Sequence record: NC_055781.1
Source of the DNA: Escherichia phage p000v
Reading direction: 5' to 3' (one strand)
DNA: 64,000 nucleotides
The notes under the pieces were generated by a model that did no database searches, had not been told where the DNA came from, and was given only the letters and a program-made list of their open reading frames with translations. Both the position numbers and the translations under genes were made by a program. Within the stretch, counting starts at the first letter, position 1. Every line of letters starts with the position of its first letter. Below are positions 3,838-13,617 of the stretch, piece after piece.

Positions 3838-5571
3838 TTACCCAATATCAATACGAGATCCGTCAACAGTGTATTGTCCTGAAGCTACTGAGCTCATTGT
3901 AGACATCGTTTCTGCCCAATCCCCGGCAACAGTCATATCAACATTACCATTAACAGTCCATTTAACGTTTCCGTTGACGGTGTAATCATGATTCCCTTCG
4001 ACCTGAGTTTTAGCATCACCTTTAACAAGAATATCTGCATTTCCGTCAACAACTATTTTGATATTACCCTTAACGTAAAGAGTTCCATCGCCTTCAACAG
4101 TTTTAGTTTGGTTACCACGAATAAAGATTGTGTCATTGCCGTCTATTTGATGGAGGCGATCTGCCATGTTATAATATATTTCATTAGCACCAACGTTAAC
4201 AAGCTTATCACCAGAAATCAAGAAGTTCCCATCGCCATTAGTGATGTCAAAAAGGTCTTCTACAGTTTTACGAGTACGACGCCCGGATGGAGAAACTTCC
4301 TCATATGACCCTGTTGGATGAACTAAGCGATAACGTTCATTACCTGGAGTGTCATCAAATTCTTGGATATGACCACTTTCTGTTTCCATAGCATGAACAT
4401 ATGGATACTCACCACGATAACTTGATTCCGGTTCTTTAAAAAGGATGCGTGAATCTAATGGAACAGGAGGACCGGCCGGGTCTTCTGAATCGGTATTTCT
4501 AGTAACTAAATCGGCACCAACTCCTGGTGAAGGTGGTGTTTTAACAGGAACACCGTACGATTCCATGTTACCAGTTAAAATAATTGTTGTTACGCGTGAA
4601 GCACGTCCTTTAGTCTGTTGGAACCATAATGAATCACGCCCGGATTTGTATGCAGTTTTCCAATCACCTGTGGCCATTGCTTTAAGCATAGTATTGAATT
4701 TTGCTACGCCACCAACGCCCATTTGGAAGCACATGTTTTCTAATGCCATTTGACGAGACCTGTTCATTTTAGCATAAACAGGACCTACTTTGGAATTAGA
4801 ACGAATGTCTTTCTGCATCTTAGCAAGGTCTTTCTCAAATAACGCTGTTGCTTCTTCTAATGTAATAGTTCCCGGATTTCCTGTTACTTCACGCCCTACT
4901 TGATCGGATAACAATTTATTAATTCGAGACATATCTCGGGTCTTTTCCATTACGATAAGGTGTCCAATACCTACTGTAGGATATCCGAGATGGTCCCAAT
5001 ACACTTTATCACGAAGTCCTTCGTCACGACGTAACATTTCCGTTATTGTAAAATTAGGGTCATCATCTTCTGGAATATTTGCTAAATCTGTATCGTCTGG
5101 GTTTATACCATAATCCAAGTTGTTATCTTGAATTACGTTAGAGTTTGAATAATAACCGGCTTCACCACCTTGGTTTAATACGTTAGTATCATTACCTAAA
5201 CGTCGTGGATATTGGCCTGTCGGGTCTGAAAAACCTTCAAGTCTATTAGGCTTTTCACGTACGATTCCGCCGTATGTACCAAGTACAATCCCGTTTGTTT
5301 TCCATTTGTCTAAGAAATGACCATATACTCGAGTTCCTTCAACAGGACCTGTAACAGAACCACCAATACCTGACATTGATGCGGACGTAATAGGTTGAAT
5401 AACAGTCATCCATGGAAGTTTTTCTGTAGGAATACCTTGCACATCACCTTGTGCTCTCTGTGCTGGATGAAGACCAACGACTCGAACTCGAACTCGCCCT
5501 TGTTTTAATGGGTCCATTCTGTCCTCGACAACACCCACGAACCAATTAAGGCTACTGCTAATCATTTCCAT
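3838..5571 (-). CDS. 5: baseplate hub / cell-puncturing protein gp5 with lysozyme domain
   Basis: 577 aa; T4-lysozyme-like segment (GIGHL...WFQQTKGRASRVTTIILTG) and C-terminal beta-helix repeats (VxGNxxxTV). Confidence 0.93.
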   Translation of the reverse strand: MEMISSSLNWFVGVVEDRMDPLKQGRVRVRVVGLHPAQRAQGDVQGIPTEKLPWMTVIQPITSASMSGIGGSVTGPVEGTRVYGHFLDKWKTNGIVLGTYGGIVREKPNRLEGFSDPTGQYPRRLGNDTNVLNQGGEAGYYSNSNVIQDNNLDYGINPDDTDLANIPEDDDPNFTITEMLRRDEGLRDKVYWDHLGYPTVGIGHLIVMEKTRDMSRINKLLSDQVGREVTGNPGTITLEEATALFEKDLAKMQKDIRSNSKVGPVYAKMNRSRQMALENMCFQMGVGGVAKFNTMLKAMATGDWKTAYKSGRDSLWFQQTKGRASRVTTIILTGNMESYGVPVKTPPSPGVGADLVTRNTDSEDPAGPPVPLDSRILFKEPESSYRGEYPYVHAMETESGHIQEFDDTPGNERYRLVHPTGSYEEVSPSGRRTRKTVEDLFDITNGDGNFLISGDKLVNVGANEIYYNMADRLHQIDGNDTIFIRGNQTKTVEGDGTLYVKGNIKIVVDGNADILVKGDAKTQVEGNHDYTVNGNVKWTVNGNVDMTVAGDWAETMSTMSSVASGQYTVDGSRIDIG

Positions 5572-6146
5572 TATGCAATCTCCATCTCACGAATCAAATC
5601 AGTAATAAACGAGTTTATATCTTCTTTTGCAACAATTTTTATTTTACGAAGTTTTTCATTATCTAATACTGCCGCTTCATAAGTATCTACTGCAGCTAAA
5701 GGTCCTTTATATTGCGGATACTTACGAGCTTCGTCACCTTTGTCATACCACACTAAAGGCTCATCCGGATATGAAACTAAATTGTAAAATTTCTCACGGT
5801 TCTCGTTAATATGGTAAAGAATTTGGTCTCCGCCAGCATTTGCATATTTCTGAATAGACGCTTGATACGCTGCTTCCTGAGATGTAATCCAACCATAATA
5901 TGGGTCATAGTTATCATTGCACATCAAAAGGACCCAGTATAATTGAGGGTTGCCATAAATTATGTTTGCTAGTTCTTCAGGACGCGGAGAGCCTTTAATA
6001 TAATAAGAACGTAATCTATAATTAGCAGCAACACGCTTAAAGTACTCTTTATAGTTACGAAATATGTCTGTCATAGGAATAGTAGGTGCATTCTTATCAA
6101 CTGTTTTAGCACTATATCCTATTGGGTCGAAGAATGTAAATAACAA
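5571..6146 (-). CDS. 53: baseplate wedge protein gp53
   Basis: 191 aa MLFTFFDPIGY...; first codon is TTG preceded by AGGAGA SD; 1-nt overlap with gp5 start. Confidence 0.85.
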   Translation of the reverse strand: MLFTFFDPIGYSAKTVDKNAPTIPMTDIFRNYKEYFKRVAANYRLRSYYIKGSPRPEELANIIYGNPQLYWVLLMCNDNYDPYYGWITSQEAAYQASIQKYANAGGDQILYHINENREKFYNLVSYPDEPLVWYDKGDEARKYPQYKGPLAAVDTYEAAVLDNEKLRKIKIVAKEDINSFITDLIREMEIA

Positions 6147-6173
6147 AATAGTCTCCTTCCAATATGAAATTGG

Positions 6174-6181
6174 TATAAATA
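6174..6181 (+). promoter_or_regulatory. T4-type late promoter TATAAATA, upstream of gene 4
   Basis: Exact TATAAATA about 27 nt upstream of gp4 ATG. Confidence 0.6.
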
Positions 6182-6188
6182 ATAATAC

Positions 6189-6196
6189 TATTTATA
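6189..6196 (-). promoter_or_regulatory. T4-type late promoter TATAAATA (reverse strand), upstream of gene 53
   Basis: Plus-strand TATTTATA is reverse complement of TATAAATA, about 43 nt upstream of gp53 start; divergent with the gene 4 promoter. Confidence 0.55.
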
Positions 6197-6207
6197 AGGA
6201 GGACAAC

Positions 6208-6657
6208 ATGGCCTACTCTGGTAAATGGGTCCCAAAAAATTTAAAAAAATACCGTGGAGACCATACCAAAATAACGTATCGTTCAAACTGGGAAAAATTC
6301 TTTTTCGAATGGTTAGATAAAAATCCAGAAATTATTGCATGGGGCAGCGAAACGGCAGTAATTCCATATTTCTGTAACGCAGAAGGTAAAAAACGTCGAT
6401 ACTTTATGGATATATGGATGAAAGATGCATCAGGTCAAGAGTTCTTTGTAGAAATAAAACCAAAGAAAGAAACTCAACCACCTATTAAGCCTGCAAATCT
6501 TACGACCGCAGCAAAGAAACGTTATATGAATGAAATCTACGTGTGGTCTGTGAACTGCGACAAATGGAAAGCTGCGTCAGCATTAGCGGCTAAAAGAAAT
6601 ATTAAATTCAGAATTCTCACAGAAGACGGTTTACGTCGTTTAGGATATAAGGGATGA
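6208..6657 (+). CDS. 4: head completion protein gp4
   Basis: 149 aa from MAYSGKWVPKNLKKYRGD with GGAGGA SD; matches T4 gp4 as recalled; track N-terminal extension rejected. Confidence 0.85.
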   Translation: MAYSGKWVPKNLKKYRGDHTKITYRSNWEKFFFEWLDKNPEIIAWGSETAVIPYFCNAEGKKRRYFMDIWMKDASGQEFFVEIKPKKETQPPIKPANLTTAAKKRYMNEIYVWSVNCDKWKAASALAAKRNIKFRILTEDGLRRLGYKG

Positions 6658-6658
6658 T

Positions 6659-7309
6659 ATGTATACTGTATATAAAATAACTAACATCGTAAATAATAAA
6701 ATTTATATAGGTGTTCATAAAACTAATAACCCGGATGATTCTTATAAAGGAACAGGTAAAATTATCTTAAAAGCCCATGCTAAATACGGATTAGATAATT
6801 TTGTAAAAGAAGTATTATATGTGTATGATACCGGTGACGAATTACTAAATGAAGAAATGGCTTTCCAAAAGGAAGCAGAATTAGTTGATCAATCTTTTGT
6901 GGATAGAGAAGATACATATAATATAGACCTAGGAGGAAAGGGAGGACGAGGCCGTTCTATTGATGTGCGAAAAAGAATAGGCGATTCATCCAGAGGTAGA
7001 AAATTAGGTCCTATTTCCGAAGAATCTAAAAAGAAAATGAGTTTAGCTAAGAAGGGTAAGAAATTATCCGAAGAGCATAAAGCTAAAATAGGTAAAGCAG
7101 GCCGAGGCAGGATAATGCCTAAAGAGATTAGAGACAAAATAAAAAATACTCTTACGGGACGAAATAGAACTCCTGAAGAAAAGGAAAACATGAGATTAGG
7201 ATACTTAAATACTCCTAATAAGATATGCCAATACTGCGGTATAGAATGTAAACCTGCGCCTTATAAACGTTGGCATGGTGATAATTGTAAAATGAGGAAA
7301 GTTGAATGA
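6659..7309 (+). CDS. GIY-YIG homing endonuclease (Seg-like)
   Basis: N-terminal [23 protein letters not shown] motif; basic C-terminal DNA-binding region; inserted between genes 4 and 2 with ATGA overlap onto gene 2. Confidence 0.85.
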
Positions 7310-8127
7310 GCATATTCCAAATTATATCTGAAGGCGTACAAGCCCCTAAGATTGCTCAGTCTATTAACGAAAGAAAATGGATTAAGGTGGGATTAGAGTA
7401 CAAGAAAGCTAAAGAGAAAGGAATCACTGCAAAAGCATTTGCAGAATCAAAAGGAATAAAATACTCGACGTTTAAGTCTGCAATGTCTAAATATGCATCG
7501 GCTATTAAAACTGAACAGAAAATTGAAACACTTGAATCTAAACCTAAAAATAAACTCAATAAGCAAGAACGTCAACTTCTGATGATAAACTCGTTTCGCA
7601 GTTCAATACGAGAAAAGATTAGAAATGAAGGCGCAGCAGTAAACAACAAATCATCTAAGTGGTTTGTTGAAACAATTAAGAAAAGTGTAAAAGGTCATAA
7701 AGTAGTCAAGCCTACGCCAGGCAAAATTTATACTTACGTGTATGATGCTAAACATAAAGATACTCTGCCATACTGGGACAGATATCCTTTGATTATTTAT
7801 TTAGGATTAGGTAAACATAATTTGTTGTATGGGTTAAACTTGCACTATATCCCACCTAAAGCACGACAACAGTTTCTTGAAGAATTGCTGAAGCAATATG
7901 CTAGCACAACTACTATTACTAATAACACAAAGTTGAAGATAGACTGGAGCAAGGTGAAAGGATTTCAAGGTGCTGACAAAATGATTAAAGCATACCTGCC
8001 AGGCCACATTAGAGGAACAATAACAGAAATCGCTCCTAAAGACTGGGCTAACATAATCATGTTACCTACTCAGCAGTTTATGTCAAAAGGAAAACGTTTC
8101 TCTGCGAATACTGTTTGGAAATCTTAA
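7306..8127 (+). CDS. 2: DNA end protector protein gp2
   Basis: 273 aa; size and position (between 4 and 3) as in T4; basic protein. Confidence 0.75.
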
Positions 8128-8229
8128 TTCTATTCTCTTCCGTTCTTCTGATATTCTGTTGAACCAGATTAATGGAAGAGACCTAAAACCATTATACTGC
8201 ATTTTTATTAAAGCGTTTTTGAGGTGCTT

Positions 8230-8814
8230 ATGACTCGTCCAACGAGACAGATTTTTAACCAAACAAATATAACAAACTTTGTTGTGGATATCCCGGATAG
8301 TACACGAACTTCAGGTTTTGTGCTCAATGCCCAAACGGCACCATTGCCAGGTGTGAGAATTCCTGTTGTTGAAACTGTGACAGGCACAATGGGGTTAGGA
8401 CGTGCAATGCGTGCAGGCACCACATTTGAATACGACCCTTTTGTTGTACGATTTATAGTTGATGAAGACATGACGTCCTGGATGAACATGTATAAATGGA
8501 TGCTCAGCACTAATAACTATATAACCGGACATAATACAGCCCACTCCGATGGTCCTGAGTTTGTTACTTTGCACATTTTAAATAACAATAAGACAGAAGT
8601 AGTTTTGACGGCAAATTTCTATAAACCATGGATTTCTGATTTGAGTGAAATTGAATTTAGTTACACTGAAGACTCTGACCCTGCCGTTACGTGCGTAGCA
8701 ACTATTCACTATGCGTATATGACGATAGAAAAGGATGGTGAAGTCATTGTATCTCAACAACCGCGTCAAGCGGTCGAATCTAAATCCATTTCTAGACACC
8801 CTTCCTTGCGTTAA
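8230..8814 (+). CDS. 3: tail completion and sheath stabilizer protein gp3
   Basis: ATG 8230 with GAGG SD; position between genes 2 and 1 as in T4. Confidence 0.7.
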   Translation: MTRPTRQIFNQTNITNFVVDIPDSTRTSGFVLNAQTAPLPGVRIPVVETVTGTMGLGRAMRAGTTFEYDPFVVRFIVDEDMTSWMNMYKWMLSTNNYITGHNTAHSDGPEFVTLHILNNNKTEVVLTANFYKPWISDLSEIEFSYTEDSDPAVTCVATIHYAYMTIEKDGEVIVSQQPRQAVESKSISRHPSLR

Positions 8815-8867
8815 TCGCTTCTAGCTCCGTATGTTATAATCACTTATAAATTATATGAGGAAAACCT

Positions 8868-9602
8868 ATGGAGCTAATCTTTTTAAGTGGCATCAAACGT
8901 AGTGGTAAAGACACTACTGCTGATTACATCAATTCAAACTTTAAATCCGTAAAATACCAATTAGCATATCCAATTAAAGACGCTCTAGCAATAGCCTGGG
9001 GACGTAGGCATGCTGAAAATCCTGATGTATTCACAGAGTTGAAATACGAATACTTTGAAGGCATTGGATACGACCGTGAAACACCATTAAATCTCAATAA
9101 GTTGGATGTTATTGAATTATTGGAAGAAGCGCTAATTTATTTGCAAAGTCAATATTTACCAATTAATAATGTTAAAGTATTATCATCGTTAGAAGGTGGA
9201 TATTCATATCTAGATATTAAACCATATGAAGCCCTGCGTGAAGCTATAAATAATATCAACGACACATGGTCAATCCGCCGTCTTATGCAAGCCCTCGGTA
9301 CGGATGTTGTCGTTAATTTATTTGACCGTATGTATTGGGTTAAGCTTTTTGCATTAAACTATATGGATTATATTGGAAGTGATTTCGATTACTATGTCGT
9401 AACCGATACACGCCAAGTCCATGAAATGGAAACCGCTAGAGCGATGGGTGCCACAGTTATTCATGTGGTTCGCTCTGGTACGGAATCCACCGATAAACAT
9501 ATTACAGAAGCTGGGTTGCCTATTGAAGAAGGTGATTTAGTTATTACAAACGACGGCTCTTTAGAAGAGCTTTATTCTAAAATTGAAACAATCTTAAGGT
9601 AA
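8868..9602 (+). CDS. 1: deoxynucleoside monophosphate kinase gp1
   Basis: 244 aa; MELIFLSGIKRSGKDTTADY P-loop and extended similarity to T4 gp1. Confidence 0.93.
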   Translation: MELIFLSGIKRSGKDTTADYINSNFKSVKYQLAYPIKDALAIAWGRRHAENPDVFTELKYEYFEGIGYDRETPLNLNKLDVIELLEEALIYLQSQYLPINNVKVLSSLEGGYSYLDIKPYEALREAINNINDTWSIRRLMQALGTDVVVNLFDRMYWVKLFALNYMDYIGSDFDYYVVTDTRQVHEMETARAMGATVIHVVRSGTESTDKHITEAGLPIEEGDLVITNDGSLEELYSKIETILR

Positions 9603-9606
9603 TAAA

Positions 9607-10292
<686 letters not shown>

Positions 10293-10304
10293 TTTCACAA
10301 AACA

Positions 10305-10340
10305 GTTTACATAAGGATGATGGTGTGTTACTATCATCCT
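10305..10340 (+). promoter_or_regulatory. early-type promoter (GTTTAC -35, TACTAT -10) with 8-bp inverted repeat AGGATGAT/ATCATCCT
   Basis: Sigma70-like spacing; inverted repeat brackets the -10; upstream of CTS protein gene. Confidence 0.6.
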
Positions 10341-10368
10341 ATCAAATAAACAACCTCAAGGAAATAAA

Positions 10369-10680
10369 ATGAAAACGTATCAAGAGTTTATCGCAGAAGC
10401 TACTAAAGCCGATAAAAATTTTATTATTAACACCACCGGTCCGTTAGATGATGAATACGCTAATGCTATTATTAAGTCAATTTCTAATCAAGGCGTTGAA
10501 GTAACAAATTTCGAATATAAGAAAAATGATACTTATATGGTAATTAGTATCAAAAAAGGTTCAAAGGCTAAAATTAAATCTGCATTTGGTGTTATGCGAG
10601 TCGACCAAATCGATAACCACGATTTTTCACAAACAGGGGTCAAACGCCAGAATACTATTTCATCTAAAGGCATAAAATAG
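10369..10680 (+). CDS. internal protein with capsid targeting sequence (IPI-locus protein)
   Basis: Starts MKTYQEFIAEA, the T4 internal-protein capsid-targeting leader; located next to 57B where T4 has ipI. Confidence 0.8.
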   Translation: MKTYQEFIAEATKADKNFIINTTGPLDDEYANAIIKSISNQGVEVTNFEYKKNDTYMVISIKKGSKAKIKSAFGVMRVDQIDNHDFSQTGVKRQNTISSKGIK

Positions 10681-10718
10681 TTTACATGCTGATAGGACTA
10701 TGTTATAGTAGTCCTATC
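10680..10718 (+). promoter_or_regulatory. early-type promoter with 10-bp inverted repeat GATAGGACTA/TAGTCCTATC around -10 (PeSL-like cassette)
   Basis: GTTTAC, 18-bp spacer, TATAGT; perfect inverted repeat flanks the -10. Confidence 0.6.
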
Positions 10719-10746
10719 AAAACAAATGAGTAAATGGAGAAATAAA

Positions 10747-10932
10747 ATGAAACGCGCTGAACTGATTCGTAATGTTGCTGTAGTAATTGCTTCAATGGCT
10801 TTTAGTTTTTCGATGTTTGTAGGATTCATTTGTGGACTACTGACAACAACTGAAAATTCTATCTCATTGGTAGTAGCATTTCTAATCGGCTTAATCGCTA
10901 TCGTTATGGATAAAATTGCAAAAGGTGAGTAA
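10747..10932 (+). CDS. small membrane protein
   Basis: Start set at second ATG (GGAGA SD); two hydrophobic helices. Confidence 0.55.
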   Translation: MKRAELIRNVAVVIASMAFSFSMFVGFICGLLTTTENSISLVVAFLIGLIAIVMDKIAKGE

Positions 10933-11295
10933 ATGAAATATCATGTATATGCGGATTTTGAAGCAAATCCTTCTAAAGACCCTGATTGTCGTTTGATACG
11001 CAGACCATTTGATTCGGCAGCTCAAGCCTGGGCCTGGATTAAATCTAAATCGCCTGGTTATATGTTCTTTGAAGTAGTCGATGACAATGGTACACTGCAT
11101 CCGGCCCCTACAGAAACTATTAATTTCCTTCTGTTTGCTGGTTATGAATATTATCCTTATGGCGGTATTGACGACTTATACGCTAAAGGAAAAACTGTTG
11201 AGGCTCTTCGCGAAATTTATAAAAACGCTGAAGAAAATTTTGACTGGTATCATATTGTTGATGCTCACACCTTTGAAGTGGTGGAACATTCATGA
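10933..11295 (+). CDS. hypothetical protein
   Basis: 120-aa ORF, tightly packed, no motif recognised. Confidence 0.55.
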   Translation: MKYHVYADFEANPSKDPDCRLIRRPFDSAAQAWAWIKSKSPGYMFFEVVDDNGTLHPAPTETINFLLFAGYEYYPYGGIDDLYAKGKTVEALREIYKNAEENFDWYHIVDAHTFEVVEHS

Positions 11296-11582
11296 TTCTT
11301 TATGCTAAAGTATCATCCGTCAAGAACGGTTATGAAAGCGACCAACGTGCAGCTAAAGCACTAGTTGATGACTACGGTATTCTGACCCTCTTTGAAGTTG
11401 AAAAGGTTTATATTGACCGTTCATCTTCACAGGTTAAATTACTCTGGGAAGACCGTAAATTTAATAGTGTGAACTTTGATTTCTTTATTGAAACAGAAAA
11501 AGGCCCTCTTGAATATGATATTTTCAAGAATCCTTTAAATCTTGAATGTATTGAGTATACTTACATTAATATGGTACGGTGA
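11292..11582 (+). CDS. hypothetical protein
   Basis: 96-aa ORF overlapping previous stop (ATGA). Confidence 0.55.
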   Translation: MILYAKVSSVKNGYESDQRAAKALVDDYGILTLFEVEKVYIDRSSSQVKLLWEDRKFNSVNFDFFIETEKGPLEYDIFKNPLNLECIEYTYINMVR

Positions 11583-11586
11583 GTAA

Positions 11587-12102
11587 ATGAATATTCGTTT
11601 AGGCAGTACAATTACTAAGGGCTACGTAATTGATGTCACTACCTATGAAAATGATGGTGACAACTATAAAACCAAAACATTGTTTGAAGTGGAAGAACAT
11701 GAGCTCCAACAGTTTAAATATCTCTTGAAGAAATTTAAGAGCCGTCATTCTAGCACCAAAGCCGAACGCTATTGCGGTAATACACCATTCAGTGATTGCT
11801 CGCTTATTATCTACGAATATCTGGTTGAAGGACTGTTCTCAGACCAACTCCAACCGGAATTTATTAAAAAGGTCTTTGGTATCGAAGTAGACCTTGGTGA
11901 TAAATCTGAAGAAGACGAAGCCCGCGTATTCGACCTGTTCTTTGTGAAAGGCGATGAGATATCTCAAGGACTTATTGATATTCTTGGCTATGCTTCTGAA
12001 TACTATGATTACGATTTCTTGCGTGTAGTTGAACGTGTCGAATTTGCTTATATTGAAAAAGAAATTGTTTTGCCAACAGTTAAAATGGTTGATTTGCTTT
12101 AA
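11587..12102 (+). CDS. hypothetical acidic protein
   Basis: 171-aa ORF with SD; no motif recognised. Confidence 0.55.
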   Translation: MNIRLGSTITKGYVIDVTTYENDGDNYKTKTLFEVEEHELQQFKYLLKKFKSRHSSTKAERYCGNTPFSDCSLIIYEYLVEGLFSDQLQPEFIKKVFGIEVDLGDKSEEDEARVFDLFFVKGDEISQGLIDILGYASEYYDYDFLRVVERVEFAYIEKEIVLPTVKMVDLL

Positions 12103-12181
12103 GAATTATGTGTTATTATTAATTCATACCCTCTATTACCAAAGGTGCTCTAAAGTGCCTTTCATAATAGAAAGTTATTAA

Positions 12182-12253
12182 GGCCCTGTAGCTCAATGGG
12201 AGAGCTGTCAGCTCATAACTGATAGGTAGCTGGATCGAAACCAGCCAGGGCCA
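12182..12253 (+). tRNA. tRNA with CAU anticodon (elongator Met or Ile2-type); CCA not encoded
   Basis: Hand-folded cloverleaf: acceptor GGCCCTG/CAGGGCC, D-stem GCTC/GAGC, anticodon stem GTCAG/CTGAT with loop CTCATAA, T-stem GCTGG/CCAGC; 1-72 pair is G-C so not an initiator. Confidence 0.8.
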
Positions 12254-12294
12254 TATTTTGGGAACATAAATACTCTTAGAAATAGGAGATATTT

Positions 12295-12963
12295 ATGTTC
12301 CATTACACTTATAAAATAACAAATAAAATTAATAATAAAATCTATATAGGCGCTCATTCTACCGAAAATTTAGATGATGGATATATGGGTTCTGGTAAAT
12401 TATTAAAAAGAGCCCAAGACAAGTATGGTATAGAAAATTTTAATAAAGAAATTTTAGAATTCTTTGACACTAAAGAGCAGATGTTTGAAGCCGAGAAAAA
12501 TATCGTAAACGAAGAATTTTTGAATCGTTCTGACGTATATAATTTAAAACTTGGTGGCGAAGGTGGTTGGGACCATTTAAATACTTACGAATTTAATTAT
12601 AAAAAGAAAGAAGCCTCTATTAAAGGAGCCAAAGCTTTTAAAGAGAGATTTGATTCTGATGAAGTGCTTCAAGAAAAATATCGTAAAATGGGTTCAGAGA
12701 AATTAAAGCATCTGTGGACTTTACCTGAATACAGAGAAAAATTCTCTAGCACTAAGTCGTTTTTAAATAAAAATCATACTTCCGAAACTATTGCTAAAAT
12801 GAAAGATACCCACGCCAGGAACAAACACCAACAAGGCGAGAAAAATTCCCAGTTTGGTACTATGTGGATTCATTCATTAGAAGAAAAGAAATCTAAGAAA
12901 ATTAAGAAAACCGATCCTATTCCGGAAGGTTGGATTAAAGGCTATAAACTAAAATTTAAGTGA
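12295..12963 (+). CDS. GIY-YIG homing endonuclease (SegB-like, tRNA region)
   Basis: YKITNKINNKIYIGAHS...GSGKL GIY-YIG motif; adjacent to tRNA as T4 segB. Confidence 0.85.
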   Translation: MFHYTYKITNKINNKIYIGAHSTENLDDGYMGSGKLLKRAQDKYGIENFNKEILEFFDTKEQMFEAEKNIVNEEFLNRSDVYNLKLGGEGGWDHLNTYEFNYKKKEASIKGAKAFKERFDSDEVLQEKYRKMGSEKLKHLWTLPEYREKFSSTKSFLNKNHTSETIAKMKDTHARNKHQQGEKNSQFGTMWIHSLEEKKSKKIKKTDPIPEGWIKGYKLKFK

Positions 12964-12970
12964 GGAAAAT

Positions 12971-13316
12971 ATGAAAGGTAATATTTATCTGGTAGTTCAT
13001 GATTTAACGTTTTATTTTAACGAACAGGATACAGTTATTTCGCGACCGGTTGATTAATTCATTATATCAACACGCTGATTACGTTTATTTCCAAAATGAA
13101 TTTGGCCATTGGAAGTTCCTTAAAAATCGTTCCGGGTTAACTAGTTTTGAATACTTTGACCGTAAAGACCTTTTAAACGAAATTCCATTGCAACATCGGT
13201 TCCAGAAACGCGAATCATTATATTATTGCCGTCATATACCAAACGCAGAATGTGCCAATGAAGCGATTAATCTATGGCGTAGACGTAGAGAACAAATTGA
13301 TGATATGCCAAAATAA
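12971..13316 (+). pseudogene. possible frameshifted gene (28-codon ORF with strong SD, then 88-codon frame lacking ATG)
   Basis: ATG 12971 with GAGGA SD opens a 28-codon frame ending 13057; an overlapping frame is open from 13008 to 13316 with no ATG; T-rich run at 13011-13020. Confidence 0.35.
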
Positions 13317-13617
13317 GAAGCCGGGTCGCTACCGGCAAGACGTCGGACTGATGTTCCCTGGGTAAGGACTGGTCTTAATAAATCTTTACGATTTGTTAAT
13401 ATCCCCTTACATCACAGCAGAAACGGCGCGCAGAATTATCGATTCGAGGAAATATCTTTGCCGTAAGCCGAGTAGCGTTTTTGACGGAACGTTCGGATAT
13501 GGTCGAGATATGGCCTTTTAAAAATATTGAGTAGCGTCAACTGCTTAATAACCGGGTTCGAATCCCGGCGTTTCGTACAAACACTTACCTAGTAGGTGGA
13601 AACCCCGACAAGGTATA
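13317..13617 (+). ncRNA. candidate stable small RNA(s) with tRNA-like 3' element (analogous to T4 RNA C/D region)
   Basis: 300-bp ORF-free stretch beside tRNA/seg locus; T-arm-like CCGGGTTCGAATCCCGG (13552-13568) plus acceptor-like pairing CGGAACG/CGTTTCG; ends at strong terminator. Confidence 0.3.

Follow-up and report, generated by a model that had tools for sequence, protein, structure and literature searches.

Several free-standing homing endonuclease genes (HEGs) have been described in T4 and its relatives. SegB is a free-standing GIY-YIG homing endonuclease of the T4 tRNA cluster, which promotes its own inheritance together with that of flanking DNA (Brok-Volchanskaya et al. 2008, PMC2330249). 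SegF and SegG are likewise free-standing; their cleavage sites lie some way off inside an adjacent gene, and the DNA from the break up to the endonuclease gene is co-converted (PMC2988022). It has been demonstrated that SegF, SegG and SegB of T4 cause marker exclusion of phage T2 (PMC2988022, PMC2330249). SegH is a free-standing HEG found at nrdD/nrdG in LZ2, U5 and RB3-type phages, according to the account of Sandegren et al. 2005 that is cited in PMC2988022. T4-like genomes are highly mosaic. A review published in 2010 described RB69 as being without HEGs, and it saw 'no convincing evidence' of HEG movement between T4-like genome types (PMC2993671).

The DNA analysed here (the window) is a stretch of 64,000 nucleotides from Escherichia phage p000v (NC_055781.1), a Mosigvirus, i.e. 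an RB69-like phage of T4 type. Positions 3838-9837 are collinear with RB69 at 96-99% nucleotide identity, and the nearest records to the window in this region are ChristianSchoenbein (97.7%), HX01 and GADS24. The genes around the insertion are as follows.

3838-5571, minus strand: gp5, by alignment to annotated RB69
5571-6146, minus strand: gp53, by alignment to annotated RB69
6208-6657, plus strand: gp4 (head completion protein), upstream neighbour of the insertion, with a body that equals RB69 gp4 at 364 of 368 nt
6659-7309, plus strand: predicted free-standing Seg-type GIY-YIG HEG of 216 aa with an ATG start, from the open reading frame, homology and fold
7306-8127, plus strand: gp2 (DNA end protector), downstream neighbour of the insertion, by alignment to annotated RB69

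After gp2 the order of genes is gp3, gp1 and gp57A, again from alignment to RB69, and the gp4 protein matches the Pfam TnsA-like N-terminal domain (E 2.6e-20). The open reading frame at 6659-7309 probably encodes a free-standing Seg-type GIY-YIG homing endonuclease, the gene of which has entered the junction of gp4 and gp2 in a phage of the RB69 type. As about 150 close relatives lack it, the gene is a mobile insertion of a well-known and ordinary type, and the mechanism predicted for it is that of SegF, SegG and SegB, in which the neighbouring gene is cut and co-converted.

The motif residues of the catalytic domain are the same in the HEG protein as in T4 SegB. Both genes are free-standing, and the HEG is predicted to promote, as SegB does, its own inheritance along with flanking DNA. 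It differs from SegB in its C-terminal half, which consists of NUMOD3-like helices and a CCHC knuckle that SegB is missing; it also occupies another insertion site, and its target is presumably the coding sequence of gp4 and not the T-arms of tRNAs. The likeness to SegF and SegG lies in the intergenic position beside a conserved gene, with a displaced cleavage site that is a prediction in the case of the HEG, and in a one-sided co-conversion tract whose polymorphism protects the carrier allele, again as predicted for the HEG. SegF and SegG sit at 56/69 and 32/59, whereas the present site is gp4/gp2, with a short tract of ~80 bp in the case of Mosigvirus. SegH resembles the HEG protein at 41% identity over aa 2-161 (tblastn, E 7e-22), a span that covers the catalytic domain and the first NUMOD3-like helices, and both genes are sporadic among close relatives, but SegH has another locus and another C-terminal domain. 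I-TevI of the T4 td intron (1LN0, 1MK0) is the best structural match to the catalytic domain. Both proteins are modular, with an N-terminal GIY-YIG domain, a helical linker of NUMOD3 type and a DNA-binding module with a zinc element, the latter putative in the HEG protein. Unlike I-TevI, the HEG has no intron, its protein shares about 20-24% identity with I-TevI and has no identifiable equivalent of R27, the CCHC knuckle sits at the very end of the protein, and a helix-turn-helix domain was not found.

In public records, including those of HX01, ChristianSchoenbein, GADS24, RB16 and others, the gene already bears the label 'homing endonuclease' or 'putative Seg-like homing endonuclease'. A search of the literature found no paper on a gp4|gp2 endonuclease.

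The insert lies exactly between the stop codon of gp4 and the start codon of gp2. The empty junction of RB69 reads ...GGATACAAGGGGTAA-TT-ATGAGC..., that is gp4-TAA-TT-ATG-gp2. In the window the corresponding arrangement is gp4-TGA-T-[651-nt open reading frame]-overlapping ATGA-gp2: the gp4 stop TGA at 6655-6657 is followed by a single T at 6658 and by the HEG ATG at 6659, and the HEG stop TGA at 7307-7309 overlaps the gp2 ATG at 7306-7308. The initial annotation had placed a GIY-YIG gene here, between gp4 and gp2 and overlapping the gp2 start. Both statements hold, the gene being supported by PHROG, by SegB homology and by an I-TevI-like model, with its ATG one base beyond the gp4 stop. Three short signals were noted around the insert.

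6174-6181, plus strand: TATAAATA, exact match to the T4 late-promoter consensus, 27 nt 5' of the gp4 ATG
6649-6654, plus strand: AAGGGA, Shine-Dalgarno-like, within the final gp4 codons and 4 nt 5' of the HEG ATG
7294-7301, plus strand: GAGGAAAG, within the final HEG codons, as read from the sequence

The motif TATAAATA shows no enrichment across the whole window; from its position and its agreement with the T4 late consensus it is likely to be the promoter of a gp4-HEG-gp2 transcript, and the HEG would thus be transcribed late together with gp4 and gp2. AAGGGA could serve as the ribosome-binding site of the HEG, its counterpart AAGGGG being the one that would serve gp2 at empty sites. GAGGAAAG may be a substitute Shine-Dalgarno sequence which the insert supplies to gp2, and each of the lineages compared has an equivalent purine-rich motif at the end of its HEG. 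A scan for sigma-70 promoters and terminators gave none above shuffle expectation near the insert. An RNA hairpin that occludes the ribosome-binding site of the HEG, as is the case for I-TevI, was considered and discarded, as the fold of 6600-6700 was no better than that of shuffled sequences (z -1.2). An intron-encoded endonuclease was also rejected: Rfam finds no group I intron, the only match in 5500-13600 being a tRNA. The HEG is a free-standing open reading frame between genes, neither intron- nor intein-borne.

The HEG protein matches PHROG 314 'homing endonuclease' with an E value of 1.7e-50, and T4 SegB, an enzyme proven by experiment, aligns with it at 48% identity over aa 1-96 (tblastn, E 5e-21). 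The fold was examined on an AlphaFold2 model built on 50 homologs, with a mean pLDDT of 91.8, and three parts can be distinguished.

6659-6943, plus strand: GIY-YIG catalytic domain, aa 1-95, modelled with a beta-beta-alpha-beta-alpha core at pLDDT 92-97
6959-7210, plus strand: NUMOD3-like stretch of five short helices, aa 101-184, from the model, with a marginal Pfam match
7226-7288, plus strand: putative C-terminal CCHC knuckle formed by C190, C193, H206 and C210, from lineage alignment and model

The best three Foldseek matches of the model in the PDB are all the catalytic domain of I-TevI (1MK0, 1LN0_B and 1LN0_A), with a probability of 0.96-0.99, a target-normalised TM of 0.51-0.56 and a modest E value of ~1e-2. 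This fold search was used in place of a search by sequence against profiles of solved structures, in which I-TevI was matched over the GIY...YIG stretch alone, with an uninformative E value of 0.2. The GIY and YIG motifs are represented in the protein by V4-Y5-K6 and Y16-I17-G18, on modelled strands 2-9 and 15-21. Among the 50 homologs Y5, Y16, G18, Y87 and N88 are invariant, while E72 is kept in 49 and H20 in 47. GIY-YIG enzymes carry a conserved arginine in helix 1 (R27 in I-TevI), a metal-binding glutamate and a conserved asparagine (E75 and N90 in I-TevI). By order and spacing along the chain, rather than by residue-level superposition, E72 and N88 would be the counterparts of E75 and N90. 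The column of the helix-1 arginine is occupied by K38 in the HEG protein and by K (22), N (7), R (5) and A (4) among the 50 homologs, with no invariant arginine; it is R in T4 SegB and in the SegB ortholog of the window, and K or R across the gp4|gp2 lineage. K42 and K50 are conserved basic alternatives. The helices of the NUMOD3-like stretch, modelled at 101-111, 121-131, 138-148, 155-165 and 172-184, are presumed to be a DNA-binding linker. Pfam scores NUMOD3 here at a marginal 20.7 bits against a cutoff of 20.4; elsewhere in the lineage the score is 57.5 bits with 3 repeats (in the allele of phage ECO111 5-P) and 24.2 bits (in P479). In an alignment of the 18 members of the gp4|gp2 lineage C190, H206 and C210 are invariant and C193 almost so, and the knuckle is modelled as a beta-hairpin followed by a helix at a pLDDT of about 95. 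It could be a zinc-binding module for DNA recognition. Apart from an identifiable helix-1 arginine, all computable features of the GIY-YIG superfamily were found in the protein, as were all computable features of predicted Seg-type homing endonucleases.

The same features allow a different reading, in which the gene is an inactive or decaying HEG relic, passively shuffled among Mosigvirus by homologous recombination between the flanking conserved genes. The scores of the catalytic domain in Pfam are below threshold (PF19835 SegE_GIY-YIG gives 21.1 bits against a cutoff of 25, and PF01541 gives no match) and helix 1 is without the invariant arginine; both points speak for this reading. However, the remaining motif residues are invariant in the 50 homologs. 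Since every member of the gp4|gp2 lineage has either K or R in this column, K38 is better taken as a trait of the subfamily than as a lesion.

Phage records matching 5600-8800 number 678, of which 155 do so at a nucleotide identity of at least 80%. Only 5 of these 155 cover the HEG; the alignments of the others are split in two in the way that an empty site produces. About 150 Mosigvirus records thus have an empty junction, uniform and seamless (TAA-TT-ATG). The HEG protein is encoded by 4 of the 151 records that match the 5' end of gp2 (3 phages), and tblastn matches at an identity of at least 99% came from 4 records, namely HX01 (two entries), ChristianSchoenbein and GADS24. One extra Mosigvirus carrier, a contig, was found in IMG/VR by an exact-pattern scan. 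The protein is 100% identical among the carriers. It had been suggested at the outset that both GIY-YIG genes of the window are candidate mobile insertions and that the 4-2 junction be compared across relatives; both genes are missing from most close relatives, and a HEG universally present at this junction is clearly contradicted by the about 150 empty sites.

Among five carriers the 651-nt open reading frame shows 0-4 differences, and all 4 nucleotide polymorphisms are silent. Diversity of the cassette is 0-0.28 per 100 nt as compared to 2.6-3.1 in the 2.2-kb flanks, i.e. about 10-fold lower. The flanks of the carriers are not monophyletic and are interleaved with those of non-carriers. Of the 5 carriers, 4 are closest, in one flank or in both, to a phage that has no HEG; for the window these closest phages are MM02 (left flank) and F2 and JQD51 (right flank), none of which has the HEG. 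At 250-350 bp 5' of the cassette, haplotypes already divide the carriers into groups, each of which is common to some non-carriers. Low diversity in non-monophyletic backgrounds is evidence for a recent horizontal spread of the HEG cassette. Ordinary homologous recombination in mosaic T4-like genomes could have moved the cassette without the help of the nuclease. The mosaic nature of these genomes (PMC2993671) and the frequent recombination in the region which the flank haplotypes reveal are in keeping with a passive relic. On the other hand the open reading frame is intact in the five genomes, with an identical protein and silent changes only, and a 10-fold difference in diversity between cassette and flanks is not predicted by passive hitch-hiking. 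We consider a relic unlikely, and regard the gene as one for a homing endonuclease that would promote its own spread.

The gp4 gene of the window carries a mark of the insertion at its 3' end.

6576-6657, plus strand: HEG-linked diverged tail of gp4, 82 nt, by comparison with RB69

In this tail 27 of 82 nt differ from RB69 (33%) as compared to 4 of 368 (1%) in the body of the gene (binomial P 1.6e-16). Twenty-four gp4 codons differ from RB69, and the 4 that alter the amino acid are all in the tail. The tail is identical in 5 of 5 carriers, and another allele is common to 5 of 5 non-carriers (RB69, F2, JQD51, MM02 and O157 typing phage 3). When 50,697 phage records were searched by blastn, the tail of the window type was found at high identity solely in those that carry the HEG. 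The divergence is one-sided, upstream of the HEG only; nucleotides 1-59 of gp2 are the same in every genome compared, in carriers and non-carriers alike. Further into gp2, a patch at 7365-7530 is private to the window and found no match in 151 Mosigvirus records or in other genera. No donor of the gp4 tail was found among HEG-carrying Gaprivervirus, Karamvirus, Gelderlandvirus, Lazarusvirus, RB16 or the metagenomic contigs with P0002 and P0005, the best candidate being the contig with P0002 at 74% identity in the tail.

A one-sided tract upstream of the HEG is what cleavage within gp4, followed by co-conversion of the interval from the cut to the HEG, should leave behind. The tail could thus be a putative co-conversion tract and a cleavage-immune allele, and it probably covers or adjoins the predicted cleavage site of the empty allele. 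Alternatively the cut could be made across the junction itself and not in the gp4 tail. The course of events which we propose is as follows. In a mixed infection with a relative that has an empty site, the enzyme would cut both strands of the relative's DNA within or close to the final ~80 bp of gp4. The break would be resected and repaired by the recombination machinery of the phage, with the HEG-carrying genome as the template, and the repair would copy the HEG along with the adjoining gp4 tail. The genome of the carrier would escape cutting, its gp4 tail being recoded, mostly synonymously, and its junction interrupted. The insert would be minimally disruptive, as it may ride on the late transcript of gp4 and gp2, borrow the ribosome-binding site of gp2 and give gp2 a new one. 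That the enzyme is catalytically active, where it cuts, that the recoded tail is immune and how the gene is expressed are inferred here.

Cutting of gp4 could also have a different use. The nuclease may have been co-opted mainly as a weapon between phages, which attacks gp4, an essential late gene, in relatives that infect the same cell and excludes their markers. The predicted target region is in an essential head-completion gene, the HEG is within a presumed late operon, and marker exclusion of T2 is documented for SegF, SegG and SegB of T4 (PMC2988022, PMC2330249). However, the cutting and repair that underlie homing exclude markers as a side effect, and the present data fit homing equally. 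The rarity of the gene, which is present in 3 of ~150 sequenced relatives, speaks against a strong competitive advantage. A primary role as a weapon appears very unlikely, and homing is retained as the explanation for the insert.

Six further genera of T4-like phages, as well as metagenomic contigs, have full-length homologs of the HEG (41-73% identity) in the gp4|gp2 interval.

Metagenomic contig with P0002, lineage not classified: HEG homolog, 73%
P479, Gaprivervirus: HEG homolog, 66%
vB_YenM_P8, Yersinia phage: HEG homolog, 65%
Metagenomic contig with P0005, lineage not classified: HEG homolog, 64%
vB_EluP_RZH, Karamvirus: HEG homolog, 60%
KARL-1, Lazarusvirus (subfamily Twarogvirinae), Acinetobacter: HEG homolog, 51%
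Acj61, Acinetobacter phage: HEG homolog, 48%
STP4-a, Gelderlandvirus: HEG homolog, 45%
RB16, Pseudotevenvirus: HEG homolog, 41%

In Gaprivervirus the site is empty in most relatives of P479. When P479 is compared with TH41, which has an empty site, the whole of gp4 shows 12-23 mismatches per 60 nt as against 0-6 in gp53 and gp2. This tract has the same upstream polarity as the one in Mosigvirus and is longer. Within Mosigvirus, ECO111 5-P has a different allele of 240 aa at the same junction. It was found that gp4 and gp2 of this phage are 94% and 96% identical to those of the window but the HEG is only 45% identical, its closest relative being the HEG of STP4-a (63%), and the diverged tract is confined to the final ~30 nt of gp4. 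The tract is strictly upstream in all three cases, i.e. the window type, P479 versus TH41, and ECO111 5-P. As the ECO111 5-P allele is closest to that of STP4-a and only 45% identical to that of the window, Mosigvirus has been invaded at least twice. A survey of IMG/VR with a profile of the lineage gave 2 of 79 loci flanked by gp4 and gp2 (a Mosigvirus contig and Acj61), the remaining loci being more distant Seg-like genes at other sites; the association with this site is therefore limited to the close lineage.

Such a distribution might also be obtained if the HEG were ancestral to Mosigvirus, or to T4-like phages as a whole, and had been precisely deleted in most lineages, so that the empty sites are losses. 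That very distant genera of T4-like phages have related genes at this junction would agree with it, and so would co-divergence of the gene with its neighbours, as between the window and P479 the HEG is 66% identical while gp4 is at 68% and gp2 at 69%. It is difficult, however, to reconcile an ancestral gene with uniform, seamless empty sites in about 150 records. Non-carriers are without the foreign gp4 tail, and deletion would therefore also need a replacement of 82 nt of gp4. Moreover, a near-identical cassette is common to carriers that are non-monophyletic in their flanks, and two alleles that are 45% identical occur in one genus in flanks that are 94-96% identical. We regard ancestry followed by repeated precise loss as extremely improbable, and insertion into an empty junction is kept as the origin of the arrangement in the window.

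On balance, and with modest confidence, we favour the view that a lineage of HEGs with the CCHC knuckle has tracked the gp4|gp2 homing site in phages that belong to two Straboviridae subfamilies and infect several host genera, and that it entered Mosigvirus at least 2 times from different sublineages. The host genera concerned are Escherichia, Yersinia, Enterobacter, Salmonella, Cronobacter and Acinetobacter. If this view is true, it would document the crossing of genus-level boundaries among T4-like phages by a free-standing HEG, and phages of RB69 type, once described as being without HEGs, would be naive targets under invasion. The distribution of the HEG bears modestly on the two points made in the 2010 review, namely that RB69 is without HEGs and that movement across types was not seen (PMC2993671).

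Taken alone, the HEG is an ordinary selfish element of modest interest, uncharacterised but of a well-known kind. The value of the locus lies in its being a clean natural example, with an exact insertion, a sharply bounded and one-sided putative co-conversion tract and no intron. Within a single genus the junction is empty in some phages and filled in others, with two divergent alleles in competition for it. Isolates and sequences exist for both ChristianSchoenbein (locus-tag prefix bas46) and RB69, which should make the target predicted in the last part of gp4 open to a direct test. It should be noted here, as a caution for phage genomics and therapy, that local spikes of divergence in the conserved late genes of RB69-like phages can mark HEGs and not adaptation.

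The initial annotation had also pointed to a second GIY-YIG gene beside a tRNA, and this gene is indeed present.

12182-12253, plus strand: tRNA with anticodon CAT, found by ARAGORN and by Rfam (tRNA, 62.4 bits)
12295-12963, plus strand: SegB ortholog of 222 aa, free-standing GIY-YIG homing endonuclease gene, by homology to T4 SegB

The protein is identical to T4 SegB at 169 of 221 positions (76%), over its full length and with no gaps (E 2e-128), and Pfam GIY-YIG gives 29 bits against a cutoff of 22.6. Like segB in T4, the gene is located in the tRNA region of the phage. The segB ortholog is covered (at least 80% coverage) in 2 of 829 matching phage records. The spacer from the tRNA(CAT) to the segB ortholog is 41 nt long and differs by one base from the spacer upstream of segB in T4. 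In RB69 a tRNA-Met(CAU) is followed at this place by a tRNA-Arg, and the window has the segB ortholog in place of the tRNA-Arg. The arrangement would fit homing by SegB beside a putatively immune neighbouring tRNA. SegB recognises the motif GGTTCRANTCC in the T-arms of tRNAs, often with CCAR at the cut (PMC2330249). The tRNA-Arg of RB69, which is lost in the window, reads GGTTAGAATCC...CCAAC with one mismatch to this motif. The tRNA(CAT) of the window is recoded with respect to the near-identical gene of T4 and RB69, with compensatory changes in the anticodon- and T-stems and an altered T-loop of A54, A60 type, and its T-arm reads GGATCGAAACC, with two mismatches to the SegB motif.

The homing endonuclease gene of the window, a Seg-type GIY-YIG gene, lies between gp4 and gp2, and a cluster of changes is seen in gp2 shortly after it. 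Codons 20-75 of gp2 (7365-7530) carry 15 substitutions compared to RB69, which fall in 13 codons and result in 8 amino-acid changes, and 14 of the 15 were found in the window alone. The patch starts (7365) 60 nt downstream of the endonuclease gene. It was not found in the other four carriers of the endonuclease, in the five non-carriers compared (RB69, F2, JQD51, MM02 and O157 typing phage 3) or in ECO111 5-P, another Mosigvirus with a second allele at this junction. None of the 151 Mosigvirus records of the phage collection contained it, and no match was observed among the other genera examined. An unsampled donor may have contributed the patch as a second tract of recombination or co-conversion.

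On the other side of the endonuclease gene, the head completion protein gp4 (6208-6657) has a Pfam match (E 2.6e-20, 73 bits) to the TnsA-like endonuclease N-terminal domain, and some records label it 'head completion nuclease'. Thus, the gene that the homing endonuclease presumably targets has a nuclease fold too.

The gp4/gp2 junction seems to be a hotspot where mobile genes of different kinds insert. A third, unrelated insert is present there in Escherichia phage vB_EcoM_RZ, a Gaprivervirus (L022 1302-2030). It is a cysteine-rich ORF of 242 aa annotated as hypothetical, and its sole match is a weak, sub-cutoff one (20.8 bits) to the treble-clef zinc-finger DUF4379. The last 27 aa of gp4 are the same in vB_EcoM_RZ and in P479, a Gaprivervirus which carries a homolog of the endonuclease. 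Directly downstream of this locus, in the gp2-gp3 interval, some Gaprivervirus-like genomes contain an ORF of 219-220 aa named 'putative mobile endonuclease' (L004 3469-4128 in P479; L021 4493-5155), for which Pfam gave no match. It is at the 3' end of gp2, next to this ORF, that divergence from TH41, a relative with an empty gp4/gp2 site, climbs again. Four IMG/VR contigs of ~158-161 kb (L053, L054, L056 and L057) have a more distantly related Seg-like gene (37-38% identity) and, ~250 nt downstream of it, a gp4 homolog (39% identity); no gp2 homolog was detected within the 1.5-kb flanks. The gene order thus differs in these contigs, which belong to another phage group.

Directly downstream of the second endonuclease gene of the window, the SegB ortholog (12295-12963), lies a homolog of RB69ORF150c (12971-13316) with a +1 frameshift near 13041, within a short variable patch. 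The frameshift leaves a 27-codon stub and a TTG-started remainder of 88 codons; either the gene is a true pseudogene or the frameshift comes from a sequencing error. RB69 and vB_VIPECOMC06 both have an unbroken copy, coding for 114 aa.

RB69 and most Mosigvirus phages carry a tRNA-Arg(UCU) gene that the window lacks (12254-12970, compared with L010 1257-1359). Its place is taken by the SegB ortholog, and the window phage thus has one tRNA and not two. The remaining gene, tRNA(CAT) (12182-12253), adjoins the SegB ortholog and is heavily recoded relative to the T4 tRNA-Ile and RB69 tRNA-Met genes, which are near-identical to each other. Changes in its anticodon stem and T stem are compensatory. 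Its T-arm reads GGATCGAAACC, with A at 54 and 60, as against AGTTCGAATCT in the T4/RB69 counterpart, and deviates from GGTTCRANTCC, the recognition motif published for SegB. This suggests a tRNA that would be immune to cleavage and still foldable. The same recoded variant is found in phage vB_VIPECOMC06.
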